Source: Nannocystis sp. ILAH1 (GTDB taxonomy: Bacteria > Myxococcota_A > Polyangia > Nannocystales > Nannocystaceae). From it: a stretch of DNA of 64,000 nt. Below are positions 2,709-52,701 of the stretch, in pieces (within the stretch, counting starts at the first letter, position 1; every line of letters begins with the position of its first letter). Below the pieces are notes generated by a model. It did not search any database. It was given only the letters and a program-made list of their open reading frames with translations, and was not told the origin of the DNA. A program made the position numbers and the translations under genes. The stretch covers positions 285,207 to 349,206 of the forward strand of contig NZ_JAPNKD010000014.1 of assembly GCF_026626585.1 (NCBI RefSeq). Reading direction: 5' to 3'.

Positions 2709-3560
2709 CTAAGCCGGCACGAAACACGCCCCGATGCTCTCGAACCCGGGCGCGGGGCTCGGAAACAGCGGTTCACACAGGGAGGGCGACGCGCACTGCG
2801 CGTCGCCCTCGTTCGTGGCGCAGGTCGAGGTGCAGCAGCTGCTCGAGCCGCAATTCGGCACCAGCGCCCCCGGCATGCACACGTACGTGGGGGCGCAGCC
2901 GCGGCCGTTGAACTCCGAGCAATTGGTGCCCTCGGTGCCCATGTCGATGTCGAGCAGCATCTCGCAGACGAATCGATCGGAGCCCTGGCGGCAGCCGAGG
3001 CTCGGCGGACAGATGGCCACGAGAGGGTCACAGCTGTCCGCGCAGTAGGTCGTGCCGCTGAACGGACTGGTGACGCACAGGCCCGGGTCGCAGTCGATGT
3101 CGTTGCGGCAGATCGGGAAACACAGGCCGGAGGTCGGATCGTCCTGCGTCGGCGAGAGACACACGGTGCCGGCGCCGCACCCGTCCTGTCCGCTCTCGGG
3201 CGCAGGCACGCACGGCTCGAGCGGCAGGATCGCGCTGTCGTCGGGTACGCACTTGAAGTGGTTCTGCAGGCCGCCCTCGCTGACCGCGGTGCACTTCTGT
3301 CCTTCGGGACATGCGGGAGTTCCGGACGGTTCACAGTCGTAGACCGGGACGAGGTCCGGCGGCGGCTCGGGCGCTCCCGTGGTCGGCTGCGTGTCGCCCC
3401 CGCCGTTGGTGTCCGTGTCGCCCTCGTCGCCGCCCTGGTTGCCGGCGGTGTCGTCGTCGTCGTAGGGGACGCGCTGACATGCCCCGAGGGACAGGAACGC
3501 GAGGACAGAGACGAGCCGGGCGGCAGTGACGCCGGGGCCGCGGAGCTGCGCGTCGAACAT
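2709..3560 (-). CDS. Secreted Cys-rich lipoprotein (myxobacterial Cys-repeat type)
   Basis: The internal Met gives a signal peptide plus lipobox (VLAFLSLGAC). An Asp/Gly/Thr-rich linker follows, then more than 30 Cys in repeating CxxGxxC modules. Start is set at MFDAQ rather than the upstream Arg-rich extension. Confidence 0.7.
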   Translation of the reverse strand: MFDAQLRGPGVTAARLVSVLAFLSLGACQRVPYDDDDTAGNQGGDEGDTDTNGGGDTQPTTGAPEPPPDLVPVYDCEPSGTPACPEGQKCTAVSEGGLQNHFKCVPDDSAILPLEPCVPAPESGQDGCGAGTVCLSPTQDDPTSGLCFPICRNDIDCDPGLCVTSPFSGTTYCADSCDPLVAICPPSLGCRQGSDRFVCEMLLDIDMGTEGTNCSEFNGRGCAPTYVCMPGALVPNCGSSSCCTSTCATNEGDAQCASPSLCEPLFPSPAPGFESIGACFVPA

Positions 3561-4059
3561 GCGCTCACAGTAGCAGGTGCCCGCGCGCGCGGCCCGATGC
3601 GTGCCGGCGCGAGGGCATGGGGTCCGATCGCGGACCGATGTCGCGGTCGGTTCGCGGACTGATGTCCGGATGACGCCGCTGCAAGGAGTGCGGGTCGGGT
3701 GGTGCGTGGCTGGCCGCGCGGCGGACTGATGTCCGCGAGGTGTATCGCGATCGCAGCGCATGGGTTCGCCGGACTTGTGTCCGATGCGAGCGCGACGCAC
3801 GAGCTCGTCGGACTTTTGTCCGAAGCGAGCGCGGCGCTCGGAGCCCATCGCGGCGCTCGTCATGCATCGGGGTCGGCTCGCGCGCCGGCTTCGGGCGCGG
3901 CGCGACAGGTCGTACACGAGGCCCGCAAATCGGGTGATACGTGACGCTGGCGCGAGGAGTAGGAGGCGAGGCGTTCACGCGATCGATCGAGCCTCGAACG
4001 AGAGCCCGAGGCGCTCGAGGCGGGCCGAGCGGGCGAGCATCGATCGAGAACTCGGTGCG

Positions 4060-4580
4060 CTCGAGCGAGCGTCGTCGATGACGATGCGCGGTCGAGTGAG
4101 TCGCTATGAGGACGATGCGCTCGTGGGTGTGCGGACGAGACGATGCGCTCGCGCTCGCGTGAGCGGCGATGAAAGGCGAGTGCTCGAGCTCGAGTGGAGA
4201 GCTCTCGAGCTTGAGTGAGTGGCGATGAGAGCTCGCGCTCGCGCCCGAGTGGCGATGAGCGCTCGCGCTCGCGCGCTCAGCGTGCGTCGACGAGGAAGGT
4301 GTGCTCGCGCCGGAGTGAGTGGCGATGAAGGCGTTGTGCTCGCGCGGTCGAGCGAGCGCCGAAGCGGACGATGCGCCCGCGCGTCCAACGAGCGTCGACG
4401 AGGGCCTGCGCTCGCGCGGTCGAGCGAGCGTCGACGAGGTTGATGCGCCCGCGCGTCCAGCGAGTGTCGGAGAGGGCTTGCGCTCGCGCGTCGAGCGGGC
4501 GTCGATGAGGGCGTTGCCTCGCGCGGTCGAGCGAGCGTCGGCGAGCGTTCGCGCGTCGGCCAGACGAGCGCTCCGAGCGA
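4060..4580. repeat. Degenerate tandem repeat array (about 35-36 bp unit; core GCGCTCGCGCGGTCGAGCGAGCGTCGACGAGG)
   Basis: At least 10 imperfect head-to-tail copies are visible directly. They sit in a 1 kb intergenic gap. All units resemble each other, so there are no unique spacers. Confidence 0.6.
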
Positions 4581-4617
4581 CGGCGCGTGGCCCAGGCTCT
4601 GGGCTTGCGAGCGGTCG

Positions 4618-5103
4618 CTACAGGGCGGCGGTTCGCAGGTCGGCGATGGCGGTCGTGCAGGCGTGGACGAGGGCGCGGGCGTGGTCGAGGCCCTGCTGCG
4701 CCGCCTGGTTGGGGCCGCGGTGGAGCTGGACGAGGACCTCGGTGCCGGCGGAACCGGCGGTGATGGCGACGGGGATCGCCATGAGCGCGCGCGCGGCCTC
4801 GGCGGCCCGGGCTTCGAGCGGGACCTGGTTCTCGGGGCCGCTGTCGCCGAGCAGGCGCAGGTGGTCGACATAGCTGCGGCCCCAGCGTGACTCGGCCGCG
4901 GCGAGGGCGTCCGGGGTGCCCTGGGCGCGCGCCCAGGCGACCAGGACGGCGTTGAGGGCCATCCCGGCGGCCCGGCGGGCGTGGGTGAGGGCGGTGCGGC
5001 GGACGGCGACGTGGTCGGCGCCAGCCTCGAGCTCGCTCAGGGCGGACCGCATCCAGGCGTCCGCGTCGAGGCGCCACAGCCAGTGGGCCTCGGCCTCCGT
5101 CAT
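4618..5103 (-). CDS. HEPN-domain protein (SAV_6107-like), Rx4H motif
   Basis: The 162 aa helical protein carries RRTALTH (Rx4-6H HEPN signature). Its start ATG overlaps the stop of the upstream lipoprotein gene (ATGA). Confidence 0.6.
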   Translation of the reverse strand: MTEAEAHWLWRLDADAWMRSALSELEAGADHVAVRRTALTHARRAAGMALNAVLVAWARAQGTPDALAAAESRWGRSYVDHLRLLGDSGPENQVPLEARAAEAARALMAIPVAITAGSAGTEVLVQLHRGPNQAAQQGLDHARALVHACTTAIADLRTAAL

Positions 5104-12571: not shown

Positions 12572-13837
12572 TCAGCCGGTGCGCGGCGTGGGGCGCGGGA
12601 GCAGGCGGCGTTGGGTGAAGCAGAGGCCCCAGCCGTGCGGCTCCTCGTGCGGGCGCGCGGGGCCGCTGACGAGGCGGGGGCCCTCGGCGCGGGCGGGCGG
12701 GCGTTCGCCGCCGGCGTGGACGCGCACGAGGGCGATGTCGAGGTGGCCGCGGCCGTCCATGTCGAGCGGGAGCTCGGCGACGGTCTCGGCCTCGAGGGCG
12801 AGCGGGCCGCCGGGGGCCTCGACGGCGAGGCCGGTGCGAGCGGGCGCGCGGCCGGGGCGGCGCTCCTGCGTGACCCCGAGGTCGCGGATGGGGACGACGC
12901 CGCCGGGCCGCTGGACGAAGCCGCCGGACAGGCTCACCCACGGGAAGCGGGCGGTGTGCACCCACGTCCGCAGCGGGCCGAGAGTGGCGAAGCACTGCAT
13001 GGCGGCGTCGCTGGCGCCCCAGTCGCGCACGCCCCAATTGTGGACGCGCAGGGCGGCGCCGCCGAAAGCCCGCAGGTCGCGACCGAGGGTGATCGTGCCG
13101 TGAAGATCGCCGGCCTGGACGTAGCCGCGGAGCGGGTGGCGGCGCACTGCGCGGAGCAAGCGGGTGTCCCACGCGGCAGCGCCGAGCTGACGCGCGAGCA
13201 GGTCGGGGTCGTCGTCGGTGCCGGGGACGAACGGCAAGAGGCCGGCGAGGAAGGTGAGGTCGATGCGGGCCTCGATCGACTCGGCGGGGGCGTCGCCGGC
13301 GGGGCGCACCGGCCGGCCGCGCGGGTCGTGGACGTGCAAGGCGCCGCGGTAGCGCAGGGTCCAGGTGCGCAGCGGCTCGACGCAGTCGAAGCCGAGGCCG
13401 CCCACGGACCAGCCGCGCTCGCCGTCGCCGCGCAGCAGGGCCTGGCCGCCGGGGAGGCAGTAGATCGCTGTGGGCGTGAAGAGGGTGAGCCAGACGCGGT
13501 GCGCGTCGCGGTCCGGCAACCACTCGAGGCGCGCGAGCACGGCGAGCTCGGGCTGCACGCCGACGAACACGAACTCCTCGGCGAAGTGCGGCCGGCCGTC
13601 CCAGGCGTGGCGGGCCTCGTCCTGCGGGCGCGGCCACTCGGCGGCGGGTCGTCGGAGCACGGCCCAGCGCGCGATCGCGGCCTTGACCCCGCGGCGCAAC
13701 AACCCCGAGAGGCCGGGATCGGCGATGTCGGCGCCAAGCTCCAAGCCGGGGTCGTCGGGCGGCTCGGCGAGCTCGACGTGCGGGTGCAGCGGCCGGGGCC
13801 CGCGCGGGTCTTCGGAGTGGGAGTCGCGTCCGGACAT
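12572..13837 (-). CDS. Hypothetical protein (421 aa)
   Basis: It is the only ORF in the region with a protein-like composition (W/F/Y/H/C present). The overlapping ORFs are Arg- or Ala/Gly-rich shadows. No family recognised. Confidence 0.5.
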   Translation of the reverse strand: MSGRDSHSEDPRGPRPLHPHVELAEPPDDPGLELGADIADPGLSGLLRRGVKAAIARWAVLRRPAAEWPRPQDEARHAWDGRPHFAEEFVFVGVQPELAVLARLEWLPDRDAHRVWLTLFTPTAIYCLPGGQALLRGDGERGWSVGGLGFDCVEPLRTWTLRYRGALHVHDPRGRPVRPAGDAPAESIEARIDLTFLAGLLPFVPGTDDDPDLLARQLGAAAWDTRLLRAVRRHPLRGYVQAGDLHGTITLGRDLRAFGGAALRVHNWGVRDWGASDAAMQCFATLGPLRTWVHTARFPWVSLSGGFVQRPGGVVPIRDLGVTQERRPGRAPARTGLAVEAPGGPLALEAETVAELPLDMDGRGHLDIALVRVHAGGERPPARAEGPRLVSGPARPHEEPHGWGLCFTQRRLLPRPTPRTG

Positions 13838-17385: not shown

Positions 17386-17514
17386 GCTCGCCGGCGACGC
17401 CTCGGACGAGTGCTCACATGTCCCGAGGGCCGGCCGATGTGCACCTGGCTCGAGGGGCATGTCCCGAGAGCCAGATGATCATGCTGGTCCCAGGGACATG
17501 TCTCCTGCGTCAGC

Positions 17515-19848: not shown

Positions 19849-21171
19849 ATGACGACGACGGTCTCGCCCCCCACGCCCGCAGGGCAGTGGTCCAAGGTCC
19901 GCAACGAGCTGCAACAGCTCTGGCACACCGAGCTGCGCGACTCGAACATCCGCGCGGCGTACGTGGTGTGCGCGATGACCGGGACGGCCTACGGGATGGT
20001 GACCGCGGTCGTGGCCGTCTACCTGAACAAGGTCCGCGGCATCGATACGCAGACGATCGGCGTGTTGGCGATGTTCTTCGCCGCGGGTATCGCCCTCTTC
20101 TCGGTGCCGATGGGCAAGGCGATCCAGCGCTTCGCGCCGCGGATGATCTTGTCGCTCGGGCTCCTCGGATACGCGACGGCCACCGCGATCTTCCCGTTCC
20201 TCGCCACACTGCTCGGGCTGGGAGCGGCGCGCGGGTTCGACGGCGCTTTTTCGGTCGGCGTGTGGGTGAGCCTCGAGACCGTGTTGCTGATGCGCACGAC
20301 GACCGCGCATCGCGGGCTCATCACCAGCCTCTACACGATCTCGATGTCGACCGGCTACGCCCTCGGTGCGGTGATCGGGTGGATCGTGATGCTGATCTAT
20401 CCGATGCCGATGGTGTTCGTGGCAGCGGGGCTGTTCGCCTCGCTGGCGGCGCTGATCGCCTACGTGTTCCTGGACCGCGACATCCAGCCGATCACCGGTA
20501 GTGGTCATGGACACGAGCACGCGGACGAAGCCCCGAGACCCGAGGCCGCCATCGAACGTCATCCGCCGATCCTGAAGCTGTACTGGCGGATCAAGACGGC
20601 CTGCATCCCGACGTTCTGTTACGGCTACTTCCAGGCGTCGATGGTGCTGTTCCTTCCTCTGTTCTTGATCAACTCTCGCGGGGTCAAGGAAGAAGATACC
20701 GTCTTCTTGGTGGCGTTCTTCTCGATCGGCATGGCCGCCAGCGTGGTGTTCGTCGGCCGTCTCGGCGATCGCTACGGCCACCTCAAGACGGTGCGCTCGC
20801 TGGTGGGGCTCGGGGTGGTGTTGACGGCGTCGCTGGTCTACCTGCCGACGCTCTGGCTGGTCGCGGTCGCGGTGCTGCTCGCGGGCGCCTCGCTGGCGCC
20901 GATCTGGCCGATGAGCCTGGCGCTGCAGAGCCTCATCGTCGACCCGCGCGACTTCAGCCGCAGCAACGCGCTGCTGAACGGCTCGTACGGGCTCGGCACG
21001 CTCGCGGGGCCGCTGGTGTCGGGCTTTTTGTTCAAGCACTACGGCGGCGAGACGATGTTCCTCCACATCGCGGTGCTGTGGGCGCTGGCGCTCCTGGCCA
21101 CGCTGGCGTTCCGCCGCGACGATCCGAGCTTCCGCGCGATCGCCCACGCCCGCGCGCGCGCGGCGGTGTGA
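19849..21171 (+). CDS. MFS transporter
   Basis: The product has 12 predicted TM helices and an MFS-type loop motif. Length is 440 aa. Confidence 0.85.
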   Translation: MTTTVSPPTPAGQWSKVRNELQQLWHTELRDSNIRAAYVVCAMTGTAYGMVTAVVAVYLNKVRGIDTQTIGVLAMFFAAGIALFSVPMGKAIQRFAPRMILSLGLLGYATATAIFPFLATLLGLGAARGFDGAFSVGVWVSLETVLLMRTTTAHRGLITSLYTISMSTGYALGAVIGWIVMLIYPMPMVFVAAGLFASLAALIAYVFLDRDIQPITGSGHGHEHADEAPRPEAAIERHPPILKLYWRIKTACIPTFCYGYFQASMVLFLPLFLINSRGVKEEDTVFLVAFFSIGMAASVVFVGRLGDRYGHLKTVRSLVGLGVVLTASLVYLPTLWLVAVAVLLAGASLAPIWPMSLALQSLIVDPRDFSRSNALLNGSYGLGTLAGPLVSGFLFKHYGGETMFLHIAVLWALALLATLAFRRDDPSFRAIAHARARAAV

Positions 21172-21187
21172 GGCTATCCTCGCGGGC

Positions 21188-22234
21188 ATGGGCCTGCTCC
21201 ACCGTCTGTATGCTCGCGCCGCGCCCGAGGTCTGGGAGACCGAGACGCGGCTGCTGCACGCGCTCCGACTGGTCCGCCGGCCGCTCGCGGTGCAGTGGAT
21301 CGCCACTGCGATGTGCGACCTCCGCTGTCCGCACTGCTACTCCGGCGCGGGCAAGCGGGCCGAGGGCGAGCTGACGACGCAGGAGGCGATCCGTCTGGTG
21401 GTCGACGAGCTGGTGGCGCTCGGCCGGCCGACCTTCGTGATCGCGGGCGGGGAGCTGTTGCTGCGCCGCGACATCGCCGAGATCGTAGCGCACGCGCGGG
21501 CGCAGGGGCTCGAGTGGGCGATGCACACGCACGGGGGACATGTCCCCAAGTTCAGGTCGCTGTTCGAACGCCACCCGCCGACTCTGGCGGCGATCAGCCT
21601 CGACGGCGAGCAGCGGCAGCACGACCTGTTCCGCGGGCGCCAGGGCAGCCACGCGGCGGCGCTGGCTGCTATCCGCACGCTCAAGGAGTGCGGCTGTCCG
21701 GAGGTGGTGGCGGGGACGACCGTGACGCGCGAGAACGCCGACCGCCTGGCCGACCTGTTCCCGATCGTCGCAGCCTCGGGGGCCGATTCGTGGGGCCTCC
21801 ATCTCTTCGCTCCGGAGGGCCGCGGCGCCGAGCACACCGCGCTGTGTCCGACGCCGGAGCAGCTGCGCCGCGTGGCCGCGTTCGCCCGCCGCAAGCGCGG
21901 GCTGTTCCACGTCGAGCTGTGCAACGAGTGGGGCAGCGCCGGCGCCGACGATCGCTTCTACCGCGACCAGCCGTTCCTGTGCGGGGCCGGCCGGATCTCC
22001 TGCGTCGTCGGGGCGACCGGCGAGGTGCTTCCGTGCACCACCACCGACCTGCGCGAGTCGGAGGGCAACGTGCGCGACCGGCCGCTGCGTGACATCTGGA
22101 CCCGCGGCTTCACGCGCTTCCGCAGCGCCGGCCACCGCGAGTGCTCGGACGGCCACGAGTGCTGGCTGCAGGCCCGCAACGGCAACCCGTGCCGCGAGCA
22201 GGCGTTCGGCGCCTGCCGCAAGGAGGCGGTGTGA
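21188..22234 (+). CDS. Radical SAM protein with C-terminal SPASM domain
   Basis: It has the CDLRCPHCY (Cx3Cx2C) motif and a C-terminal Cys cluster (CGAGRISCVV...CTTTD...CSDGHECW...C...C). It lies 16 nt downstream of the MFS gene. Confidence 0.85.
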   Translation: MGLLHRLYARAAPEVWETETRLLHALRLVRRPLAVQWIATAMCDLRCPHCYSGAGKRAEGELTTQEAIRLVVDELVALGRPTFVIAGGELLLRRDIAEIVAHARAQGLEWAMHTHGGHVPKFRSLFERHPPTLAAISLDGEQRQHDLFRGRQGSHAAALAAIRTLKECGCPEVVAGTTVTRENADRLADLFPIVAASGADSWGLHLFAPEGRGAEHTALCPTPEQLRRVAAFARRKRGLFHVELCNEWGSAGADDRFYRDQPFLCGAGRISCVVGATGEVLPCTTTDLRESEGNVRDRPLRDIWTRGFTRFRSAGHRECSDGHECWLQARNGNPCREQAFGACRKEAV

Positions 22235-23547
22235 GGCGCTGGTGGCTCGACCTGGGCTCGTTCGCGGTGGCGCTCGCGCTGGCCGCGGCGGTGGTGCTCC
22301 GCTGGCGTCGGGGTCACGTGGCGCTGCTGTCGAGCACGGCGGCGCCGGCGATCCGGCTGCTCGCGCTGCTGATCGTGTTCGTGCAGGGCTGCGCCGACCG
22401 GCTGCGCGGGCGCGAGGAGCCGGACGGGCAGGGGGCTGTGCCGGGCTCTCAGGACATGTCGGTTGGGGCAGGTCCATCGCAGCAGGTCGAAGAGGACATG
22501 TCCCAAGGGGCAAATGCTCCGGAGAGCTCGGGGACGACGCCGACGCTCGGGCCCGACGCATTCCCGCTGGCCGACGAGGCGGCGCTGGGCAGGTGGGCGC
22601 GGCTCGTCGCGGACGACGGGTTCGCCGTCGGGCCGGGCAAGCGGTTCGCGCTGGCGCTGGTGCCGGTGCCGGAGGCGACGCCGGCCCAGGACCCGCGGTG
22701 GCTGCAGGTCGCGTCCGCCCTCGAGGCGCTGGCCGACGCGGCCGGCGGCGCCGAGGGTGAGGCGTTTCGCAGCCGCTGGCGGGCGCACGTGGAGGCGCGC
22801 AAGGCAGGCGGCAGCGAGACGATCGCGGAGCTGCAGGCGCTGCTGAGCAGCATGGAGGCGCTGCCGCTCTACCACGCGGGGCTGGCGGGCTACGTGTGGC
22901 GCCGGGCGGCGCCGCTGCCGGTGAGCGCATCGGAGCGGGCGGAGCTTTTCGGGCGGATCGAGCGGCACCTGCGGGCCTGCGAGGCGCTGCTGAAGGGCCA
23001 GTTCGAGACGGGGCCGATCGAGTTCACTGCGTGGCGCAGCAAGGCAGCCCCGCCGGTCGGCTACTCGGGCTTGAAGGTGCCGAAGGGGCTGCTGGCGGCG
23101 GCGAAGGGGCACTATCCGCAGATCGACGCGGGGACGTGGACGGTCGAGGCGACGCTGTCTCTGACCGTGGTCGACGCGGGCGTGACGCTGCTGCGCGCGG
23201 GCCGGGCGTCGGAGCTGCAGGCGGGGCAGCGGTTTACTCTGGGCCGGCTGGACGTGCTGGCGAGCGGGCGACCGGCGAAGCTGCGCCACGATGAACTCGG
23301 GGACATGTCCCTCGGAGCAGGCGCGGTGGTGACTGCGTGGGACGTCGGCCAGCGGCTCGCGAGGCCCGGGAGCGAGCGGGTGCGGGCGAAGGTGGCAGCG
23401 GCCCAGAGCGACGATTCGAAGGCGCTCGAGCAGCTGCAGTCGATCCTGCCGGCGGCGCACCTCGAGATCCGCCGCGCGCTGGCCGAGAAGCCACAGGCAC
23501 CCGGCTCGCCGGGGCTGCGCACGCTGCTCGAGCTGTTCGACCAGTGA
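22231..23547 (+). CDS. Membrane-anchored protein of unknown function, translationally coupled to the radical SAM gene
   Basis: The GTG start overlaps the rSAM stop (GTGA) and has a perfect AAGGAGG SD. It has an N-terminal TM (WWLDLGSFAVALALAAAVVL). It contains in-frame GGACATGTCC elements. Confidence 0.6.
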   Translation: MRRWWLDLGSFAVALALAAAVVLRWRRGHVALLSSTAAPAIRLLALLIVFVQGCADRLRGREEPDGQGAVPGSQDMSVGAGPSQQVEEDMSQGANAPESSGTTPTLGPDAFPLADEAALGRWARLVADDGFAVGPGKRFALALVPVPEATPAQDPRWLQVASALEALADAAGGAEGEAFRSRWRAHVEARKAGGSETIAELQALLSSMEALPLYHAGLAGYVWRRAAPLPVSASERAELFGRIERHLRACEALLKGQFETGPIEFTAWRSKAAPPVGYSGLKVPKGLLAAAKGHYPQIDAGTWTVEATLSLTVVDAGVTLLRAGRASELQAGQRFTLGRLDVLASGRPAKLRHDELGDMSLGAGAVVTAWDVGQRLARPGSERVRAKVAAAQSDDSKALEQLQSILPAAHLEIRRALAEKPQAPGSPGLRTLLELFDQ

Positions 23548-23599
23548 GCCGCTCTTCCTCCGAGCGCGGCCGCTGGGGCGAGCCACGGCGGACTCGCTC

Positions 23600-23780
23600 T
23601 CATGGCTTCTGGGACATGTCGTGACGACATGTCCGATCGCAAGCAGTCGCTCGTCTGGCGTCGCCGAGAGTGCGGCCGCCAACGGCGATCCTCAGAGAGA
23701 ACGCGGATGGACCATGCGACATGTCGATAAAGACATGCCGCATGAGACATGTAGCGAGTGACATGTCCCGAAGTCGCAAT
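23600..23780. repeat. Cluster of about 7 GACATGTC palindrome-family elements
   Basis: gggacatgtcgtgacgacatgtccg, then cgacatgtcgataaagacatgccgcatgagacatgtagcgagtgacatgtcccgaag. Confidence 0.55.
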
Positions 23781-24979: not shown

Positions 24980-25290
24980 GGCGAGCGCGCGCAGGATAGT
25001 GGCGCACTGTCGCGCGCGGCAAGGCGGGCGCCGCGGGCGCGAGGTCACACGCGTCGGCCAGGGCCTCGCGCGGGCCGATGCGCGGCGGTGCGGGGCTCAC
25101 GCCGGTCGGGCTGCGGAGCTCACGCCGGTCGGGCTGCGGAGCTCACGCTGGTCGGTCGCGGCCGGCGGACGGGCCGGTGCGAGCGAGCCGAGCTGCGGGG
25201 TTCATCGTCGGCGAGCGCCGCGGTGAGGAGAGCCCGCGGAGGCGCGATGCGGCGGAGGCAGACGAGTCGCGCGGTCGATGCGGCCGCGCG

Positions 25291-28200
25291 TCAGGTGGGC
25301 GCGCTGCCGTTGTACATCGCGCTCCACTGCGCGGGGCGGAGGATGGCCCGCGAGGCGAGGTACTGGTCGGCCTGGGCGATCAACGTGGCGCCGCTGGGAC
25401 CCAGCAGCTCGCCGCGGCGGCGACGGGCGCAGGCGGCGTGGACCGGCATGTCGGCGGTGTCGAAGCTGGCGGCGGCGGCCTCGAGGCGGACGAGCGCCTG
25501 CTGGATGTCGCCGTTCTGTGCGGCGATGCCGGCCCGGATCAGCGCGGCCATGGCGACGGAGTCGTGGCGCAGCGCGCGGTCCTCCTCGAGCTGCGCGGCG
25601 TCGCGTTCGGCGGCGGCGAGCAGGACGCCGGCGTTGTGCGGCTGCTCGCGCGCGGCCGCGACGGCGGCGAGGCCCCGCGCGTGGAGGAAGAGGATCCGCT
25701 GGCCCTGCCAGCCGAAGATGTACGAGTTCTCGACGGCGACCCAGTTCTCGGCCAGACGCTGCCAGGCCGAGCCACCTTGCCCTTGGTACAGGTCGCACGA
25801 GGTCTCGAGGAGCAGCGCGAGCATGTGCTGGAAGTGGAAGCCCTCCTTCGACCAGCGGCGCATCGCCCCGCGCACGCGGTCGCGGGCGCTGGTGATGTCG
25901 TCGGCGCCGAGCAGAGCGTAGGCGCTGTAGAGGGCCGACCAGACCTCGCCGCACAGATCGCCGGCGTCTTCCGACTCGCGCAGCCAGGCGTGGGCGCGGT
26001 GGCCGAGCTCGGCCAGCTCGCCGAGCATGAACAGGCCGCGCATCGTGCTCATGCGGGCGAGGTCGAGCTCCCAGCCGACGCCGACGCAGCGGTCGAGCAG
26101 GATCTGGGCGCCCTGCTCGCAGTGCTCGAGCGCGCGGCGCCAGCGGCCGAGCGAGACGGCGGCGATGGCGTCGACGATCTCGCACAGGCCGATGAGGCGC
26201 GGCTCCGAGATCTGTTCGGCGAGGCGGCGCGCCTCCTTGAGCAGGGTGGTGCCGCGGCTGACGGCGTTGGCGGTGCCGCGGCTCATGATCATGGCGCCGA
26301 CGCCGGCGAGCGCGCGGGCGATGCGCTGCGGCTCACCTGTCTGAAGGGCCAGGAGGAGGCCGCGCTGGTAGAAGCTGTAGCCGCGGATCGGATCGACGAA
26401 GGCGAGGCCGACGGCCGCCGACAGGCACACGTCGAGGCGCAGCAGATCGGCCGGCGGGACCTGCTCCTCGCGCACCGCGGCGAAGCCGAGCCCGCGCAAG
26501 CTGAGCTGCGTGGAGCGGGTGATGATCGACATGTTGGCGCGGCCCGGCGTGGCCGGGTAGCCGAGGTCGACCTCGACCAGCGCGGGGCGCAGCATCCGCA
26601 CGCCCTGGTCGATGTTGCCGCTGACGAGGAACTGCTCGCCGGCGCGGCGGCGCAGCTCGAGTGATTCGGCCGGCGAGGCGCCCTCGGCGGCGCTGGCGTA
26701 GACCGGGGCCGCCTCGGCGCTGCGACCGGCCAGCGCGAGCGCGTCGGCGCGACGGCGGAGGAGGGCGCGGCGCTCGTCGTCCGGGAGGTCGGGCGCCCAC
26801 GCGAGGGCGCGGCCGTACAGCTGGGCGGCGCGGTAGAACGCGAGCGCGGCGGCGGCCCGCTCGGCGGCGGCGACGGCGGCGGCGTGCGCCTCCTTCAAGG
26901 CGCCGGCGGCGTGGAGGTGGTGCGCCAGCAGCTCGGGGTCGTCGGCCGACTGCGCGAGCGCGTCGGCGAGGGTGCGGTGCAGCTGCGCCTGGCGCTCGCC
27001 GCCGAGCTGCGCCAGCACGGTGTCGCGGATCCGGTCGTGATAGCATTCGACGGTGTCGCCGCTGCGCGAGGCCAGAGTGCGCAGCAGGTGCTGCGCCTGC
27101 AGCTCGCCGAGGACCGAGCGATCGGTGACGCCCGAGGCCGTGAACGCGAGGCTCGGCGGGATCGGCCGCCCGGCGATGGCGACGATCTCGAGCAGGCTGC
27201 GACCCGCGGCGCGCAGGCCGGCGAGGCGAGTGCGCACGACCGCGTCGAGCGAGACCTCGGCCGGCGCGGCGCCGCGGTGACCGGCGATGTGGCGCGCGAG
27301 CTCCTCGACGAACAGCGGGTTGCCGCCCGACTCGGCGGCGATCCGGCGCGCCTCGGCGCGGGCGCTGTCGCTGTCACGGCCGAGCCGGGCCAGCGCGAGC
27401 TCCTCGGCCTGATCGGGCGAGAGCGGCTCGACCAGCAGGTCGCGCACCAGAGCCTTGAGCTCGGGCCGCGCGCCGAGCCGCCGCAGCTCGCGGAGCATCG
27501 GCGCGTCGTCCTCGTCGATGCGGTACGAGCCGATGAAGAGCATCGCCGGCGGATCGGGCGGCGACAGCAGCTCGGCGAGCAGGCGCGCGCTGTCCTCGTC
27601 GCCCCACTGGAGATCGGCGATCCGCAGCACCAGCGGGCGGCGATCGGCGATCCGCGCCAGCAGCTCCTTGAGCCCGCGGAAGGCCCGACGCCGCGCCTCT
27701 TGCGGGTCGGGGGCGACGAAGTTGCGCTGCGGCAGATCGGCGACCACGGGGGCGCGCGCGAGGACGGGGAACAGCCGCGTGAGCTCGTGGATCTCGCGCG
27801 GCAGCAGGGCCGCGGCCTCCTCCTGCGGGAGGTGGCGGAGGTGCTGCGCGAGCGCGTCGAGGACGCTGTCGAAGGCCTTGTACGGCACGCTCTCGCGCTC
27901 GTAGCAGCGGCCCTGGAGGACGAAGGCGCGGTCGTTGCGGCGCAGCTCGGCGATGAAGCGATCGATGAGCGCGGTCTTGCCGATGCCGGAGCGGCCGCGG
28001 ACGTACACGCACACCGGCGAGCCGGCGAGCGCGAGCTGGAAGGCGTCGCGCATCGCCGACAGCAGGTCGTCGCGGCCGACGAAGCGCGCGCCCGACTCGG
28101 TGGGGCCGAGCGGGGCCTCGCCGAGGGCCTCGCGGATGTCGGCGCCGCCGAGCCGCGCGGCCGGGTCGCGCTGCAGCAGGCCCACGCACAGGGTCGCCAG

Positions 28201-28977
28201 CTCCGGATCGACGTCGGGCACGAGCGCCTGCGGCGGGGCCGGATCTTCGTGCTGCTTGGCGTGGAGGATGGCGAGCGGCGGGCCGGTGAACGGCAGGCGG
28301 CCGGTGAGCGCCTCGTACAGCATGACGCCGATCGCGTACCAGTCGCTCGCGGGCGAGGCCGGGTTGCCGGCGGCCTGCTCCGGCGCCATCGTCGCCGGCG
28401 TGCCGAGCAGGCCGTCCTCGCCGCCCTCGGCGACGTCGTCGGCGGCGAGGCCGAAGTCGAGGATGACGACGCGACCGTCGGCGGTCACCAGCACGTTCGA
28501 CGACTTGAGGTCGCGGTGCAGCTTGCCGGCGGCGTGCAGGGCGCTGACGCCGGCGGCCAGCTGCAGCAGGGCGGGGCGCAGGCGCTCCGGCGGCGGCGCA
28601 GCGCCTGGCTTTTCGGACATGCCCTGACGGACATGGTCGACGAAGCTGACGCCGTCGACGAACTCCATGGTGATGAACCACTCGTCGTCGTGCGAGACGA
28701 GCTGGTGGAGGCTGACGAGGTTGGGGTGCGACAGGCCGGCGGCGCTGCGGAACTCGTTCTTGAGGCGGAACAGCGCGCCCGGGTCGAGCTGGTGCAGGGT
28801 CTTGACCGCGATGGTGCGGCCGCTGTCGCGATCGAGCGCGGCGTAGACGACGCCCATGCTGCCGGAGCCGACCCGACGCACCAGCTCGTAGCGGCCGAGC
28901 GGACGCGGAAGGATGTCCTCAGGGACAGGTGGCGTCACCGGCAGCGAGGCGCGGGCCTGGGGCTCGTCGGGATTCAA
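25291..28977 (-). CDS. STAND-type Ser/Thr protein kinase (kinase + AAA/NTPase + helical repeats), 1228 aa
   Basis: It has Hanks kinase motifs (VGSGSMGVVY, HRDLKSSNVL, DFGLA), then a P-loop (GRSGIGKTAL), then a long Ala/Leu-rich TPR-like region. Confidence 0.85.
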   Translation of the reverse strand: MNPDEPQARASLPVTPPVPEDILPRPLGRYELVRRVGSGSMGVVYAALDRDSGRTIAVKTLHQLDPGALFRLKNEFRSAAGLSHPNLVSLHQLVSHDDEWFITMEFVDGVSFVDHVRQGMSEKPGAAPPPERLRPALLQLAAGVSALHAAGKLHRDLKSSNVLVTADGRVVILDFGLAADDVAEGGEDGLLGTPATMAPEQAAGNPASPASDWYAIGVMLYEALTGRLPFTGPPLAILHAKQHEDPAPPQALVPDVDPELATLCVGLLQRDPAARLGGADIREALGEAPLGPTESGARFVGRDDLLSAMRDAFQLALAGSPVCVYVRGRSGIGKTALIDRFIAELRRNDRAFVLQGRCYERESVPYKAFDSVLDALAQHLRHLPQEEAAALLPREIHELTRLFPVLARAPVVADLPQRNFVAPDPQEARRRAFRGLKELLARIADRRPLVLRIADLQWGDEDSARLLAELLSPPDPPAMLFIGSYRIDEDDAPMLRELRRLGARPELKALVRDLLVEPLSPDQAEELALARLGRDSDSARAEARRIAAESGGNPLFVEELARHIAGHRGAAPAEVSLDAVVRTRLAGLRAAGRSLLEIVAIAGRPIPPSLAFTASGVTDRSVLGELQAQHLLRTLASRSGDTVECYHDRIRDTVLAQLGGERQAQLHRTLADALAQSADDPELLAHHLHAAGALKEAHAAAVAAAERAAAALAFYRAAQLYGRALAWAPDLPDDERRALLRRRADALALAGRSAEAAPVYASAAEGASPAESLELRRRAGEQFLVSGNIDQGVRMLRPALVEVDLGYPATPGRANMSIITRSTQLSLRGLGFAAVREEQVPPADLLRLDVCLSAAVGLAFVDPIRGYSFYQRGLLLALQTGEPQRIARALAGVGAMIMSRGTANAVSRGTTLLKEARRLAEQISEPRLIGLCEIVDAIAAVSLGRWRRALEHCEQGAQILLDRCVGVGWELDLARMSTMRGLFMLGELAELGHRAHAWLRESEDAGDLCGEVWSALYSAYALLGADDITSARDRVRGAMRRWSKEGFHFQHMLALLLETSCDLYQGQGGSAWQRLAENWVAVENSYIFGWQGQRILFLHARGLAAVAAAREQPHNAGVLLAAAERDAAQLEEDRALRHDSVAMAALIRAGIAAQNGDIQQALVRLEAAAASFDTADMPVHAACARRRRGELLGPSGATLIAQADQYLASRAILRPAQWSAMYNGSAPT

Positions 28978-28990
28978 GGTGGAGCGTGGA

Positions 28991-30145
28991 TTATGCCACG
29001 CGCCCGGGCCCCGGGTCGCCGTCCGCGGGCAACGCCCCGGGCGGGACGCCGAGGCCGGGGCCGCAAAGCCGCGGCAGGTCGGGCGCGAGCCGCTCTTGAC
29101 TCCCCGGCGGCATCGGGTCGGCCCGCGTGAGCATGTGGGCGTCGAGGTCGGCCTCGTCGGCGAGGCGGGCCAGGGCGGCGCCGGCGGCGAGCCCGACGCG
29201 GGTCTCGATCATGCAGCCGACGAGCACCCGCAGGCCGTTTTCCCGGGCTGCGGCGATCGTCGCCAGGGCCGGCGAGATCCCGCCGCACTTCATCAGCTTG
29301 ACGTTGATGCCCGCGACCCGGCCCCGCAGCGCCGCCACGTCGTCCGGGCCCTGCACGTCCTCGTCGGCGTAGATCGGCAGGGGGCAGTCGCGCGCGAGCG
29401 CCGCGAGGAGGTCGGGCCGACCCGCAGGCAGCGGCTGCTCGAGCTGCTCGACCCCGAGGTCGATCAGCAGCGGGAGCAGGTCGCGCACGTCGTCCGGGGT
29501 CCAGCCGCCGTTGGCGTCGACCCGCAGGCGGGCGTTCGGGGCGGCGGCGGCGATCGCACGCACGGCCTTGCGGTCGAATTCGCGGCCCTTGCCGAGCTTG
29601 ATCTTGAGCACCGGGAGGTGCGCGGCCGCGGCCGCGCGGGCCGCCATCGCCGGGAGCTCGTCGAGCGCGATCGTGTAAGAGGTGACGGTCGCCCCCGAGG
29701 TGGCCGAAAGGACATGGCGATCGAGACCTGCCCGATCGAGCACGTCGGGGTCGGCCAGCAGCTCGGCCAGCGAGCGGCCGCGGGCGCGCGCGGCCGCGTC
29801 CCACAGGGCGGTGTCGACGGCGCAGCGGGCCGCGGAGTGATCGGGGGCGAGCTCGCGCATGCGCGGGCCGGCGGCCGCGATCGCGCGCGGGTCGGCGAGG
29901 ATCTCGGGGGACAGCTCGGCCGCGATCGCGGTGGCCAGAGGCGCGGCGGCGATCGCCGACTGACCGAGGTAGCGCACGGGCGAGGCCTCGCCGAGGCCGC
30001 GGCGATCGGGGCCGTCCGCTGCGGCGCCGTCCGGGTCGCCCGGGTCAAGGCGCACGAGCAAGCTCGGCAGTTCGCTCACGGTGCCGCGCGACAGGCCGAA
30101 CGGGTGGCGCAGGCGGAGCGTGACGAGGGCAGTGCGCAGGTCCAT
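28991..30145 (-). CDS. Enolase-superfamily dipeptide epimerase / muconate-lactonizing-enzyme-like protein
   Basis: Enolase-superfamily signatures are present: KIKLG, DANGGW, EQP and DE. The start is set at MDLRTALVTLRL, with an alternative further upstream. Confidence 0.7.
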   Translation of the reverse strand: MDLRTALVTLRLRHPFGLSRGTVSELPSLLVRLDPGDPDGAAADGPDRRGLGEASPVRYLGQSAIAAAPLATAIAAELSPEILADPRAIAAAGPRMRELAPDHSAARCAVDTALWDAAARARGRSLAELLADPDVLDRAGLDRHVLSATSGATVTSYTIALDELPAMAARAAAAAHLPVLKIKLGKGREFDRKAVRAIAAAAPNARLRVDANGGWTPDDVRDLLPLLIDLGVEQLEQPLPAGRPDLLAALARDCPLPIYADEDVQGPDDVAALRGRVAGINVKLMKCGGISPALATIAAARENGLRVLVGCMIETRVGLAAGAALARLADEADLDAHMLTRADPMPPGSQERLAPDLPRLCGPGLGVPPGALPADGDPGPGRVA

Positions 30146-31710: not shown

Positions 31711-31800
31711 GGTCGAAAGGGCATGTCCGAAGGGGCATGCTCTGCGGGAAAGGTCTTCCGGGACATGTCCGAGGCGACATGTCCTCGGGGACTTCCCGTC
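31711..31800. repeat. Cluster of palindrome-family elements between convergent kinase and cyclase genes
   Basis: gggcatgtccgaaggggcatgctc ... gggacatgtccgaggcgacatgtcctcgggg. Confidence 0.55.
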
Positions 31801-40451: not shown

Positions 40452-40491
40452 TCGGCGAGGCTGTCCCGAAGGACAGCCTGTCTCGAAGGCC

Positions 40492-40525
40492 AGGAGGCCC
40501 GGCGCACGCCGGGCCTTCGGCGCTT
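40492..40525 (+). terminator. Candidate intrinsic terminator after the FHA gene
   Basis: GGCCCGGCG-cac-GCCGGGCC forms a 9-bp perfect stem. It is followed by the T-rich ttcggcgctttctc. Confidence 0.45.
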
Positions 40526-45560: not shown

Positions 45561-45849
45561 CGGACGGCCCACATTTTCGCCCGAGCCCCGATCACTTCTG
45601 CGAATTCGACCGCAACCACGTCCACTACGGTGAATCGCGGGCGGGCCGACCTGATGCGATTTCGTGGGAGCCCTTCGGACATGTCTGTAGGGTCATGTCG
45701 CGCGCTTCCACTGTCACTTGCCCGCGCGCCGCGTGCCGCATGGCCCCAGGTCCGCGGCCACAGCGGCGCGCTGGTGATCGGCCCGAGGCGGGCCGCGATC
45801 GCGCCGACGCTCGCGTTCCATCCTTCGCGCGCCGGCCGTCGCGCGAGCG

Positions 45850-46481: not shown

Positions 46482-49028
46482 ATGGCGCCGGCGAGCCACC
46501 CGAAGCGGATGTCTGCCCTGACGCTGTGCATGGCGACCACGGCGCTGCTCGCCTGTCGCCCCGCGGCGCTCACCCCCGAAGCCGAGCGCGTGCATCGGGG
46601 CGTCAATCAGATCCCCCTCAGCGCCCGACCCCCGACCGCAGGGACGCCGACCCCACCGGCAGCCGCCCTGCCGCCCCAGGCGCCTGCGGAGGTCTCCGCG
46701 GCGGCCTTGCTGGCGCGCGGCGAACCCGAGGCCGCGCTCGCGCGCCTGGCTCACGAGCCCGCGGCAGCCGGGTCGCTGCAAGCCTCGGTGCAGCGCCTGA
46801 CGAAGGCCCGCGCCGCTCGCGAGCTGGGTCGCCCGGCCGAAGCGGTCCAGGCGTTGGCCGAGCTGGCGGCGGAGCGGCGGCCGGCCAAGTCGTGGCCGCA
46901 CGAGGTGGTGCTTCACGAGTACGCCCAGGCGCTGGTCGAGGCGGCGGCGTCGGCCCCGGGCGCCGAGGCCGACGCGCTGCGCAAGCAGGCGGTGGCGGCG
47001 TGGGAGCGGGCGATCGACCACGAGCCGGTGCGCAACGCGGCGCCGATGCGAGTGGCGCGGGCGCGGACGATGGCGGCGATCGAGGGCCAGGCGGCGGCGC
47101 GCCGCGCAGTCAAGGCGCTGACCGAGGTGCTGCGCGACTACCCCGAGCACCCCGACGCCGCCGGCCTCGAGCTGCTGCGGGCGCAGGCGATCGCGCGCGA
47201 GGGCAAGACCGCCGACGCGGTCAAGGCGCTGCGCACCGTGGCCATCTGGCGCGCCGGCACGGAGGCGGCCGTCGGCGCCGAGGCGGCGCTGGCGGAGCTC
47301 GGGCGCCCGGTCCGCTACAGCGCGGCCGAGCAGCTCGACCGCGCGGCCGCGGCCCGCCGCTCGCGCGACATGACGCTGTCGCGCCGGGTGCTGACCGACC
47401 TGGTCGAAGATTCCAAAACTCCGGGACATGTCCGAGAGGTCGCGTTGCGCTCGCGGGCGTCGACCGCCTCGCGCGCCCATGACTACGGCGCGTGCGCGGA
47501 TGACCTTTCGGTCCTGTCCAAAAAGTCAGCCTCGGCCGACCTCCGCGGCGACCTGCTGCGCTGCCTCGACAAGGCCGGGCGCTACGACGAGGCGCTGGCG
47601 ATCTGGACCGAGCAGGCCGGCCGCAAGGGCGGGGCCGGGCGCGCGGCGCTGTGGGAGGCGATCCGCCAGGCGGTCCGCGGCGGCCGCTACGAGAAGGCGC
47701 GCGAACTGCTCGGGCGCACGCAGGCGAAGGAGCGCCAGCGCGGGGAGGGGCTGTGGCTCGACGCCTGGCTCGACTTCCGCCTCGGCGACTTCGACGCCGC
47801 TGCGACCGCGTTCGCCAGCGCGGAGCGCCGCCTGCCGGCCGACCAGGCCCGCGCTGCCCGCTACTTCCGCGCCCGCGCGCTGCTGGCCGCCGGCACCGGC
47901 GCGAAGGCGACAGGCGACGCAGGCGAAGAGCAGACCCCCGATCGCGGCGAGGCCGAGCGGCTGCTGCGACAGCTCGTGGCCGAGGATCCGCTCGGCTACT
48001 ACGGCCTGCAGGCGCGCCAGCGGCTGCTCGACATCGGCGCCGATCCGGGACCGCTGCCGGCGCTCGCCCCGGTGCCCGCGGAGTCGAACGCGCCGCCCGA
48101 CTTCGCGGCCACGCGCGCGACCTTCGAGGCGCTGGCCGGCGAGTTCGGCTGGGCCTTCCCGGCGCTGGCCCGCGGCGCGGCGCTCCACGCCGCCGGTCTG
48201 CTCGACGAGGCGCGCCGCGAGCTGCGGGTCGCAGTCGACGCCTACGAGGGCCTCTACGGGCTCGATCGCGGCGGCTGGGTCCCGCGCCACGAAGACCTGG
48301 TGGTGGGGCTGAGCTGGAAGTCGACGTGGAAGCAGCCGCGCCTCGGCCTGCCGAAGGACGCGCGCAAGCTGGTGCGCGAGCGCGGGGCCGGCGAGACGCT
48401 GCGCGAGGGGCTGTTCGCGCTGACGTGGGCGCTCGACGAGCCGTATCGCCGCAGCCGCCTGATGCCGGCCACGGCCGGCTCGTACAAGGCGCGCTGGCAC
48501 CCGCGGGCGTTCCGCGAGGCGGTCGAGCGCGAGGCCACTGCCCGCGCCTTCGACCCGACGCACCTGTGGGCCCTGATGTACACCGAGTCGCGGTTCCGCC
48601 GGCACGTGGTGTCGTCGTCGGGCGCGCGCGGGGCGATCCAGATCATGCCGTGGACCGGGCAGCAGCTGGCGGCGCGCCTCGGCGAGTCGTTCGACGTCGA
48701 CGCGCTGTTCGACGAGGAGCACAACGTGCGCCTGTCGGCCTATTACTTCGCCGAGCTGCTGCACAAGTTCCACGGCCAGGCCGCGCTGGCCTACGCGAGC
48801 TACAACGGCGGCCCGTTCAACGTCGCCCGCTGGCTGGCCGCCAAGGGCTCGACCTCGGCCCCGCTCGAGCTCGACGTCTTCATCGCCGAGATCCCGTTCC
48901 GCGAGACGGCCAACTACACCCGCCGCGTGCTCGAGGTGCAGGCCGCGTACGCCCTGATGTACGGCGGTTCGCTGCCGCGCTGGCAGAACACGGTCGACCT
49001 GCGCGTCGAGGACAACATCGACTTCTGA
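46482..49028 (+). CDS. Soluble lytic murein transglycosylase (Slt family) with N-terminal helical/TPR-like superhelix
   Basis: The C-terminal SLT domain carries catalytic YTESRFR and GAIQIMP. The long Ala/Leu-rich N-terminal domain and the signal/lipobox (LLACRP) are also present. Confidence 0.8.
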   Translation: MAPASHPKRMSALTLCMATTALLACRPAALTPEAERVHRGVNQIPLSARPPTAGTPTPPAAALPPQAPAEVSAAALLARGEPEAALARLAHEPAAAGSLQASVQRLTKARAARELGRPAEAVQALAELAAERRPAKSWPHEVVLHEYAQALVEAAASAPGAEADALRKQAVAAWERAIDHEPVRNAAPMRVARARTMAAIEGQAAARRAVKALTEVLRDYPEHPDAAGLELLRAQAIAREGKTADAVKALRTVAIWRAGTEAAVGAEAALAELGRPVRYSAAEQLDRAAAARRSRDMTLSRRVLTDLVEDSKTPGHVREVALRSRASTASRAHDYGACADDLSVLSKKSASADLRGDLLRCLDKAGRYDEALAIWTEQAGRKGGAGRAALWEAIRQAVRGGRYEKARELLGRTQAKERQRGEGLWLDAWLDFRLGDFDAAATAFASAERRLPADQARAARYFRARALLAAGTGAKATGDAGEEQTPDRGEAERLLRQLVAEDPLGYYGLQARQRLLDIGADPGPLPALAPVPAESNAPPDFAATRATFEALAGEFGWAFPALARGAALHAAGLLDEARRELRVAVDAYEGLYGLDRGGWVPRHEDLVVGLSWKSTWKQPRLGLPKDARKLVRERGAGETLREGLFALTWALDEPYRRSRLMPATAGSYKARWHPRAFREAVEREATARAFDPTHLWALMYTESRFRRHVVSSSGARGAIQIMPWTGQQLAARLGESFDVDALFDEEHNVRLSAYYFAELLHKFHGQAALAYASYNGGPFNVARWLAAKGSTSAPLELDVFIAEIPFRETANYTRRVLEVQAAYALMYGGSLPRWQNTVDLRVEDNIDF

Positions 49029-49307
49029 TCGCGTGCCGCTCGCGCGGCCGTCGGTGCGCAGGGCGCCGCAGCTCGCCCGGCGCTCGCCCGGTTGCCAGCG
49101 CGTGCGAACCACTCGCACATGCCTTCCCGCGGCCGCGGCGCAGGCTCGTCGGCGCGGAACCGGACCGGGCGCAGGCCCGCGCCTTTTGTCGCCACGGCCG
49201 CTGGCTTGTCGCCGCGACCGCCGCAGCGGTACCGTCGCGGTGGTGGCGAGAGCCACTCCGGCGGGAGCCGGCAACTTCGCCCTGACGGGCAGACACGAGG
49301 ATCCGTG

Positions 49308-49823: not shown

Positions 49824-49891
49824 GGCCGTTTCGGGCCGCTCCGGCGGCCTTCCTCGCCGGCAGCGGGCGAAGCGTGCTATAGGCGCCCGCG

Positions 49892-52544: not shown

Positions 52545-52701
52545 GATGGTTCCTCCGCCCGAGTTCTGATCCGGGTCGAGCGGACGAACAAGTCAAAAGG
52601 TCGTATCGCGCGCGCGCCGCCCGCGATGCCTGACTTTAAAAACATGTGCGGCCGGACATGTCCCGAAGGACCTGCCCGACCGCGCTCGTCCAGGACGACG
52701 T

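Follow-up and report, generated by a model that had tools for sequence, protein, structure and literature searches.

Palindromic decamers inside Nannocystis genes as apparent translated members of a genus-specific repeat family with a 14-bp period

In a 64-kb stretch of DNA from Nannocystis sp. ILAH1 (hereafter the window; GC content 71%), the 10-bp palindrome GGACATGTCC recurs behind genes and within coding sequences (CDS), including a gene for a hypothetical membrane-anchored protein (gene B; Table 1) in which a first-pass annotation had noticed in-frame copies encoding DMS tripeptides. The intragenic copies are translated, exceed what protein sequence and codon usage predict, and are constrained at the nucleotide level; DNA- or RNA-level pressure is thereby shown to shape these coding sequences. 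On balance we favour, by somewhat more than even odds, the view that the intragenic ‘DMS’ palindromes are translated copies of a Nannocystis-specific repeat family, a 3′-end hairpin comparable to the repetitive extragenic palindromes (REP) and bacterial interspersed mosaic elements (BIME), with the word also maintained within genes. Genes were called with a codon log-odds model trained on open reading frames (ORFs) of high GC content at third codon positions (GC3), annotated by Pfam, and compared with loci from N. punicea, two N. pusilla assemblies, N. bainbridge, metagenomes, and more distant Nannocystaceae/Polyangia. By gene content the window is ordinary chromosome (carB, greA, metG, purT-like, Ser/Thr kinases, a Slt-like transglycosylase, and a BtuF-like binding protein).

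Arrays consist of the unit and a variable 4-bp spacer, repeated head to tail with a strict 14-bp period. The 8-mer GACATGTC was the most over-represented of the window, with 16 occurrences for an expectation of 0.4–0.8 (0.83 in dinucleotide shuffles, ~20-fold; 37-fold over the mononucleotide expectation), and GGACATGTC produced 20 strand-hits in the window compared to 0.38 expected. Across 176 kb of Nannocystis DNA, the spacings between units were quantised at 14 bp (48 cases), 28 bp (24), 42 bp (28), 56 bp (16), and 70 bp (7). The tabulated spacers lacked a consensus, which ruled out a conserved spacer or tetraloop (CGAA/UUCG) hinted at by a few sites, and no conserved flank was present beyond the next unit. 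Because the spacers differ, the arrays are barely picked up by Tandem Repeats Finder.

The density of GACATGTC was 0.25–0.66 per kb at seven Nannocystis loci and 0–0.09 per kb at ten related Nannocystaceae/Polyangia loci, and none of the outgroup loci had an analogous palindrome of its own; judged from these loci, the enrichment is restricted to the genus Nannocystis. Outside the genus, a Nannocystaceae metagenome-assembled genome (MAG; BC1.173, locus L009) that is otherwise not enriched carries a perfect tandem pair, GGACATGTCC atca GGACATGTCC, at 13725–13748, from which the repeat family may be older than the Nannocystis expansion. No match at the Rfam gathering threshold was obtained for the whole window, and in the literature the decamer turned up only as a p53 half-site, with no report found on Nannocystis repeats. 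We know of no p53-family proteins in bacteria, and the likeness, an identical decamer that also occurs as tandem decamers, is a coincidence of sequence only. The half-site of the p53 response element is RRRCATGYYY, for which GGACATGTCC is optimal (PMC2275157).

The family is concentrated behind genes. With one mismatch or fewer allowed, the density of units over 221 kb fell from 5.8 per kb between convergent genes to 0.9 between co-directional genes, 0.5 between divergent genes, and 0.22 within CDS, making convergent gaps ~27 times denser in units than CDS; 65 of the 106 units were intergenic, in ~14% of the DNA. Six of the 11 convergent gaps in the window contained units, with arrays starting 7–70 nt after the stop codons. 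The gap 3′ of gene B holds an array in every species, though the number of units varies among them (2 to 6). Typically, a pair of neighbouring units is a true inverted repeat (for example, GGACATGTCG-N4-CGACATGTCC), and the arrays are predicted to fold as RNA into hairpins (-16 to -44 kcal/mol, z -3.9 to -6.7). Where a unit departed from the consensus, the compensating change lay in the partner unit in 32 cases and in the unit itself in 8. Among 58 distinct pairs, none of 500 shuffles reached the pairing and covariation observed for the inter-unit helix, while symmetry within the unit fell below the shuffle mean, without covariation. The inferred sense orientation was marked by 44 G.U pairs compared to 21 A.C mismatches, a weak signal in non-independent data, with unit orientation ambiguous in convergent gaps. 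We infer that the array is read at the nucleic-acid level, through base pairing between units and a putative sequence-specific factor.

Within gene B, whose protein is a 100% match to P0001 (Nannocystis sp. ILAH1 hypothetical protein OV203_35225, Myxococcota), an entire array is translated. The protein has no Pfam family and no significant fold match in the PDB, and its AlphaFold model has a mean predicted local distance difference test (pLDDT) score of 81; the only long low-confidence stretch (pLDDT <50, residues 60–104, nt 22408–22542) coincides with the array. Of the two copies previously placed here at a distance of 50 bp, both are present, as exact GGACATGTC(G/C) matches at 22452–22461 and 22494–22503 that gene B reads as QDMSVGAGPSQQVEEDMSQGAN, and the true spacing is 42 bp. 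As 14 = 2 mod 3, the frame in which a unit is read changes from one unit to the next, and three units (42 bp, 14 codons) generate one 14-residue peptide period (DMSVGAGPSQQVEE / DMSQGANAPESSGT; DMS-x-GAGPSQQ...), the translated linker being predicted to include the peptide EEDMSQGANAPESSGTTPTLGPDAFPLADEAALGR. Outer arms, CCGGGCTCTC and GAGAGCTCGG, close a long hairpin around the array, which with its flanks has a predicted RNA fold of -49.3 kcal/mol (z = -4.1). The array uses low-GC3, poor codons and has negative coding potential, within a dip at 22390–22540, with the frame open throughout.

Linkers of the orthologues vary in length and unit content, but all ten lengths are multiples of 3 (144–231 nt), and one protein (P0010) has exactly 14 residues (42 bp) more than another (P0011). 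At N. pusilla locus L002, both DMS tripeptides are lost and a perfectly compensated pair, GGACCTGTCG gatg CGACAGGTCC, is kept in the linker. The linkers of sister lineages L020 and L021 are made of GGACAGGTCC units, read as GQVP, and the linker of outgroup L006 is unrelated. The linker lengths, the 14-residue block, and the disorder indicate a translated array, not a non-coding spacer, and support the interpretation of the gene-B linker as a repeat array in a permissive, translated tether.

Other coding copies are of a different kind. The suggestion that insertions of the element are tolerated in linkers holds for the gene-B pair, where alignment of orthologues revealed indels that are all multiples of 3, but not for the radical-SAM, 23301, kinase, MR_MLE, and Slt sites (Table 1), at which no orthologue has an indel. 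These overlay copies lie in conserved, structured protein segments and arise from codon choice or conservative replacements. Two of them, radical-SAM (21536–21545) and MR_MLE (29710–29733), are additions to the first-pass annotation, and two others were correctly noted by it, with exact decamers found at 23301–23310 (LGDMSLGAG, given at ~23300) and 47424–47433 (TPGHVREV, given at ~47420). The copy that it described in the kinase exists as two units at 28615–28638, though both are degenerate and in different frames, lie on the minus strand within the catalytic domain instead of a linker, and belong to the peptide DHVRQGMSEKP; the peptide originally given, FSDMPLTDMV, joins residues from two plus-strand frames on either side of a TGA and is not produced by any single frame.

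The 23301 site falls in a well-folded β-strand (AlphaFold pLDDT >90), and coding potential also dips there (23230–23320). Its codons, GGG GAC ATG TCC ... GCA, are shared without change by all Nannocystis orthologues, L006, and L020. In sister lineages GAG CTG TCC (ELS) alternates with GAC ATG TCC (DMS), and more distant homologues have unrelated residues; read from this alignment, the motif corresponds to conservative amino-acid replacements (ELS/DMS). A scan of metagenomes contributed only 4 extra loci, of which L022 alone covered the gene-B GDMS site (as the ELS variant), with no match to the site in L023 and L024.

At the remaining overlay sites the palindrome is carried by rare codons. In the radical-SAM gene, L020 and L021 keep only three of the 20 rare codons that the ILAH1 copy has, exactly the motif codons GGA, CAT, and AGG (21536–21556); outgroup L006 keeps none and writes GGC CAC ... 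CGC, its GGHVP being encoded with GGC CAC GTC. The TPGHVRE segment of Slt is conserved down to 56% identity, and of the four rare codons (of 23) kept by outgroup L019 (57% identity), three are ACT, GGA, and CAT at 47418–47429. Rare codons CAT, CGT, GAA, and CCA of the kinase site are largely conserved in 4 orthologues, and N. bainbridge carries CGACATGTCC at the MR_MLE site. Orthologues with the same residues and no palindrome, which would point to mere codon choice, were found only for the radical-SAM gene of L006 and not elsewhere; the GGC CAC GTC of L006 implies that the palindrome is a derived nucleotide-level change. Within the genus, 14% of rare codons are invariant, with the motif codons among them.

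The number of coding copies surpasses that generated by resampling. With protein and codon usage fixed, the exact decamer was expected 0.27 times in CDS and reached a maximum of 2 in 300 resamplings, compared to the 4 copies observed. For GACATGTC, protein and codon usage predicted 1.6 copies in CDS, essentially all from the three DMS tripeptides, and codon resampling outside of gene B predicted 0.007, compared to 2 observed.

Table 1. Palindrome units, arrays, and associated features in the window.
Feature	Position	Strand	Sequence or units	Context
Gene B	22231–23547	+	three exact GACATGTC copies	438-aa hypothetical membrane-anchored protein OV203_35225
In-frame array (gene-B linker)	22441–22531	+	at least five units	disordered linker
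Linker units, 14-bp period	22452–22517	+	GGACATGTCG 22452, GGGCAGGTCC 22466, CAGCAGGTCG 22480, GGACATGTCC 22494, GGGCAAATGC 22508	gene-B linker
23301 site	23301–23324	+	GGACATGTCC (exact decamer 23301–23310) + degenerate second unit GAGCAGGCGC	gene B; encodes GDMSLGAG
Radical-SAM site	21536–21559	+	GGACATGTCC (G-H-V-P; exact decamer 21536–21545) + degenerate second unit	radical-SAM/SPASM gene 21188–22234
Kinase site	28615–28638	-	two-unit array GACCATGTCC gtca GGGCATGTCC	catalytic domain of Ser/Thr kinase-STAND gene 25291–28977; reads DHVRQGMS
MR_MLE site	29710–29733	-	two-unit array GGGCAGGTCT cgat CGCCATGTCC	MR_MLE (enolase-superfamily) gene; cluster of conserved rare codons
Slt site	47418–47436	+	ACT CCG GGA CAT GTC CGA with unit GGACATGTCC (decamer 47424–47433)	Slt-like lytic transglycosylase gene 46482–49028
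BtuF-like match	53900–53908	+	GGACATGCC; 9/10 match, variable loop	BtuF-like N-terminal region; its only element-like sequence
Two units	17455–17503			convergent gap, AraC-type gene / FadL-like gene
Arrays behind gene B	23612–23768		GGACATGTCG tga CGACATGTCC + 4-unit array 23717–23768	between convergent gene B and purT; hairpins -16 to -31 kcal/mol, z -3.9 to -6.7
Five-unit intergenic array	31719–31784			between convergent kinase/cNMP gene and cyclase gene; fold -43.9 kcal/mol, z = -5.5
Three-unit array	52640–52677	-		25 nt past stop of HTH_17 gene; -30 kcal/mol hairpin, then UGUUUUU
Two-unit array	55128–55151		GGACATGGCC ttcg GGTCATGTGA	convergent gap, beside A9/T9 run

In the mechanism that we propose, the family, which sits mainly within the first ~10–70 nt past stop codons, above all in convergent gaps, where neighbouring units behave as inverted repeats, would have as its main role that of a bidirectional 3′-end hairpin serving termination, transcript protection, or binding of a REP-like protein or gyrase. 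Genes carry the word in two modes. In the first, a whole array is in frame within the disordered tether of gene B and could grow and shrink only in multiples of 3 nt. In the second, one or two units overlie folded, conserved segments by means of avoided codons (GGA CAT GTC, ACT, AGG, CGA) or an ELS to DMS change, the rare codons persisting in lineages in which almost all other rare codons have been replaced. The reader of the intergenic arrays would then also be the one for which the intragenic copies are maintained or tolerated.

Several observations weigh against this proposal. No significant RNA structure was predicted for the single intragenic units at the radical-SAM, Slt, and 23301 sites (z ~0), so that a hairpin cannot explain their conservation and a sequence-specific reader must be assumed. 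A scan for hairpin-plus-U-tract terminators performed at chance (4 and 6 sites compared to 3.5 and 5.1 in shuffled sequence, none at arrays), by which canonical terminators were ruled out as the identity of the arrays, and among the Pfam-annotated genes of the window there was neither a DNA methyltransferase nor any transposase, the REP-associated tyrosine transposase (RAYT) included. The default encoding of DMS yields the motif with p = 0.53 for each tripeptide, and the case for the DMS copies thus rests on their array context and not on codon choice. Conservation of 10-mers within the genus is unexceptional (23% of CDS 10-mers invariant, linker copies below average); as evidence of selection this measure was uninformative, the genus being too closely related, and was replaced by the test of rare-codon retention in deeper lineages. 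Finally, the data comprise one 64-kb window and orthologous, phylogenetically non-independent loci, and not a whole genome.

When compared to known systems by size, flanks, distribution, phasing, and U tracts, the repeat family belongs to none of REP, the highly iterated palindrome (HIP1), the DNA uptake sequence (DUS), or intrinsic terminators. It shares with REP, BIME, and REP doublets (REPIN) of Enterobacteria and Pseudomonas (PMC3116915, PMC3337134) the character of a short, lineage-specific, many-copy palindromic repeat, mostly extragenic and past the 3′ ends of genes, rare in promoter-bearing divergent gaps, and arranged as alternating inverted units with stable hairpins and a copy number per locus that varies among close relatives. 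However, REP are ~20–40 bp with variable linkers, compared to a 10-bp unit (24-bp pair) with a rigid 14-bp period, and their 5′ GTAG-type flank has no counterpart in the Nannocystis arrays. Unlike REP, the Nannocystis unit is also found within conserved CDS with no indel, a kind of copy that transposition cannot produce. Intrinsic terminators are likewise GC-rich hairpins shortly past stop codons, but most Nannocystis arrays lack a U tract and a shared stem sequence is not a property of terminators. Only the arrays at 52640–52677 and 55128–55151 adjoin U/A runs, the former of which, from its hairpin and U-rich tail, looks like an intrinsic terminator.

A more ambitious proposal is put forward only tentatively: that this is an undescribed repeat system with a dedicated reader, its word under purifying selection even at synonymous sites of conserved genes, older than the genus expansion, and a myxobacterial counterpart of HIP1 or DUS distinct from REP-RAYT transposition. 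The greater age would follow from the retention of the Slt site in the outgroup and the radical-SAM site in sister lineages. If true, the underlying biology would be chromosome organisation, uptake/recombination, or the handling of convergent transcription, with protein linkers built from repeat DNA.

A DNA tag akin to DUS, the uptake signal sequence (USS), or HIP1 is a rather unlikely alternative, under which the word would be gained by point substitution for biased uptake or recombination, methylation-directed repair, or a chromosome-organisation reader, and the hairpin pairs would be a by-product, as in the case of Neisseria DUS. The ACATGT/RCATGY core is a typical type II recognition sequence, and such a tag would suit an abundant, genus-specific consensus with inverted pairs downstream of genes and overlay copies that arise on conserved codons without indels, by rare codons or conservative replacements. 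Neisseria DUS and Pasteurellaceae USS are also ~10-bp genus- or family-specific motifs with inverted pairs behind genes, and they shape tripeptide frequencies, their coding copies imposing tripeptides at poorly conserved positions (PMC2817400), as holds for the Nannocystis linker copies. Yet neither DUS nor USS is self-palindromic, and phased 14-bp arrays of up to 5–6 units are foreign to DUS, USS, and HIP1; coding copies of uptake sequences favour preferred codons (PMC2817400), whereas the Nannocystis GHV copies place rare codons on conserved residues. HIP1 (GCGATCGC, cyanobacteria; PMC4390886, PMC5861425) resembles the Nannocystis unit as a hyper-abundant, clade-restricted short palindrome whose conservation within ORFs implies that the DNA word itself is selected, and the Nannocystis unit surpasses the over-representation by which HIP1 is recognised (>15-fold, one clade). 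The two differ in distribution, with HIP1 spread roughly evenly over coding and non-coding DNA and not arrayed (PMC5861425), compared to the 27-fold convergent-gap bias of the decamer, and the inter-unit covariation, an indication of base pairing, is a further argument for the hairpin over a tag.

It is distinctly improbable that the arrays are double-stranded sites for a dimeric DNA-binding protein (nucleoid-associated or a regulator) bound cooperatively every 14 bp, with three sites spanning 42 bp, or 4 helical turns. The palindromic unit and strict phasing fit this idea, as do the conservation of the sequence itself in single units without hairpin potential and the retention of the Slt site in an outgroup that lacks the intergenic expansion. 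Eight of the 16 GACATGTC copies in the window lie within 2.3 kb (21537–23767; ~0.6 expected under an even spread), a cluster that spans the radical-SAM gene, gene B, and the gap behind it and is kept in all Nannocystis orthologous loci; for a dimeric protein, this operon cluster would be a regulatory or bridging region. Such a protein would be hypothetical, and compensation occurred in the partner unit at 4 times the within-unit rate, with no covariation within units, while divergent, promoter-containing gaps are nearly devoid of sites.

That the palindrome is a coincidence of peptide and codon choice, with DMS and GHV needed by the proteins and the palindrome being simply their encoding, is highly improbable and largely refuted. 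GDMSLGAG and TPGHVRE are conserved protein segments, and GACATGTC is the default encoding of DMS, but GGA CAT GTC has a prior of 0.001 per GHV site and is used at 2 of 5 such sites (expected total 0.011), and L006 encodes GGHVP with other codons. In 18,088 codons, DMS occurs 3 times compared to 1.0 expected and GHV 5 times compared to 2.6, with all three DMS in gene B, and the linker DMS fall in a disordered, unconserved stretch whose DNA is a 14-bp array; rare-codon retention, moreover, is concentrated at motifs. Pure codon coincidence was ruled out by the analytic and resampling nulls together with the GGC CAC GTC of the outgroup.

Mis-annotation, under which the palindrome segments would be non-coding, gene B two genes, and the BtuF-like start downstream of that predicted, has almost no credibility and is refuted by comparative evidence: though coding potential dips at both gene-B sites and one N. 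pusilla annotation (P0006) begins at the ATG of the second palindrome, the frame is open, 19 of 20 homologues conserve the N-terminal helices of gene B and keep them in frame (contrary to the first-pass idea of a non-coding leader), linker lengths keep the frame, and the remaining sites fall within Pfam domains or regions modelled with high pLDDT. The copy reported in the BtuF-like gene at ~53885–53960 did not materialise as an exact match; only GGACATGCC at 53900 was found, a chance or degenerate match confined to the ILAH1 strain and located within a conserved coding domain. From a predicted start of VRKPEHQWETRR at 53634, the ~110 residues upstream of Peripla_BP_2 align with N. punicea, N. 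bainbridge, and outgroup MAG L019 (VRKPEHQWETRRFVAVR..., FELRPR, AVFSL, AWLxARG), an alignment by which the N-terminal extension is coding and the later start once suggested is not sustained.

At N. pusilla locus L003 (JBMEQO010000002; 7737–11310 and 16605–19320), the MFS, radical-SAM, gene B, MR_MLE, and kinase genes are split or frameshifted and are intact in other strains, which suggests sequencing or assembly indel errors as opposed to real pseudogenes. Assembly indel errors of this type may also be behind the short gene-B annotations P0006 and P0007.

For annotation, the translated-repeat interpretation means that coding-potential dips and ‘odd’ DMS, GHV, or GQVP peptides in Nannocystis proteins are not frameshifts or false starts. 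A non-coding repeat family and CDS clearly interpenetrate here, with a protein tether made of repeat units and conserved enzymes carrying the word through avoided codons. This points to a sequence-specific process in a genus with 12–13 Mb genomes that is mined for natural products, and the 24-bp hairpin-forming pair would offer a handle on how convergent gene ends are marked in high-GC bacteria without canonical terminators.

Gene B belongs to a conserved three-gene cluster (19849–23547) with an MFS transporter and a radical-SAM/SPASM enzyme, the radical-SAM stop and gene B sharing a 4-nt overlap; synteny of the cluster extends across Nannocystaceae (also L001–L008, L020, and L021), and it may be a maturation system. 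Between Slt and metG, where the window has only ~0.86 kb (49029–49891), N. punicea (L016, 12555–15033) and N. bainbridge (L017, 12549–15024) have genes of 586 aa and 171 aa, the former with its own GACATGTC, a presence/absence difference. Directly past the stop of an FHA-domain gene, at 40458–40520, the sequence GCTGTCC-cgaa-GGACAGC forms a hairpin, with another, imperfect copy after it. The hairpin has as its stem the junction of two palindrome units (…TGTCC nnnn GGACA…), and a similar hairpin, CCTGTCC-tcgg-GGACAG, occurs behind gene B in L021; hairpins of this type may represent the array in ancestral or minimal form.

Upstream of Slt, a 1.3-kb gap has a sigma-70-like promoter match (10/12) at 45499–45470 and a strong canonical terminator (12-bp stem then T5) at 45299–45269, both on the minus strand, and the ~170 nt between them might correspond to either a small RNA or a small ORF, with a conserved two-unit array nearby (45677–45700). 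A search of viral contigs returned one tandem duplication, which was unrelated. Other repeats in the window include a 23-bp tandem repeat, TGCGGAGCTCACGCCGGTCGGGC, at 25089–25155 (2.9 copies, 95% match) in the gap between the purT-like and kinase genes, and a 36/72-bp tandem repeat at 4217–4554 (~8 copies of 36 bp, Tandem Repeats Finder score up to 297) in a region where no gene was called with confidence (3560–4618). A long GCG-rich repeat, describable as 7.4 copies of a 24-bp unit or as (GCG)n x 59, occupies 59527–59704 in the weakly scoring ORF 59208–59729, and the gene that follows this ORF has a palindrome unit (59920) overlapping its stop region.

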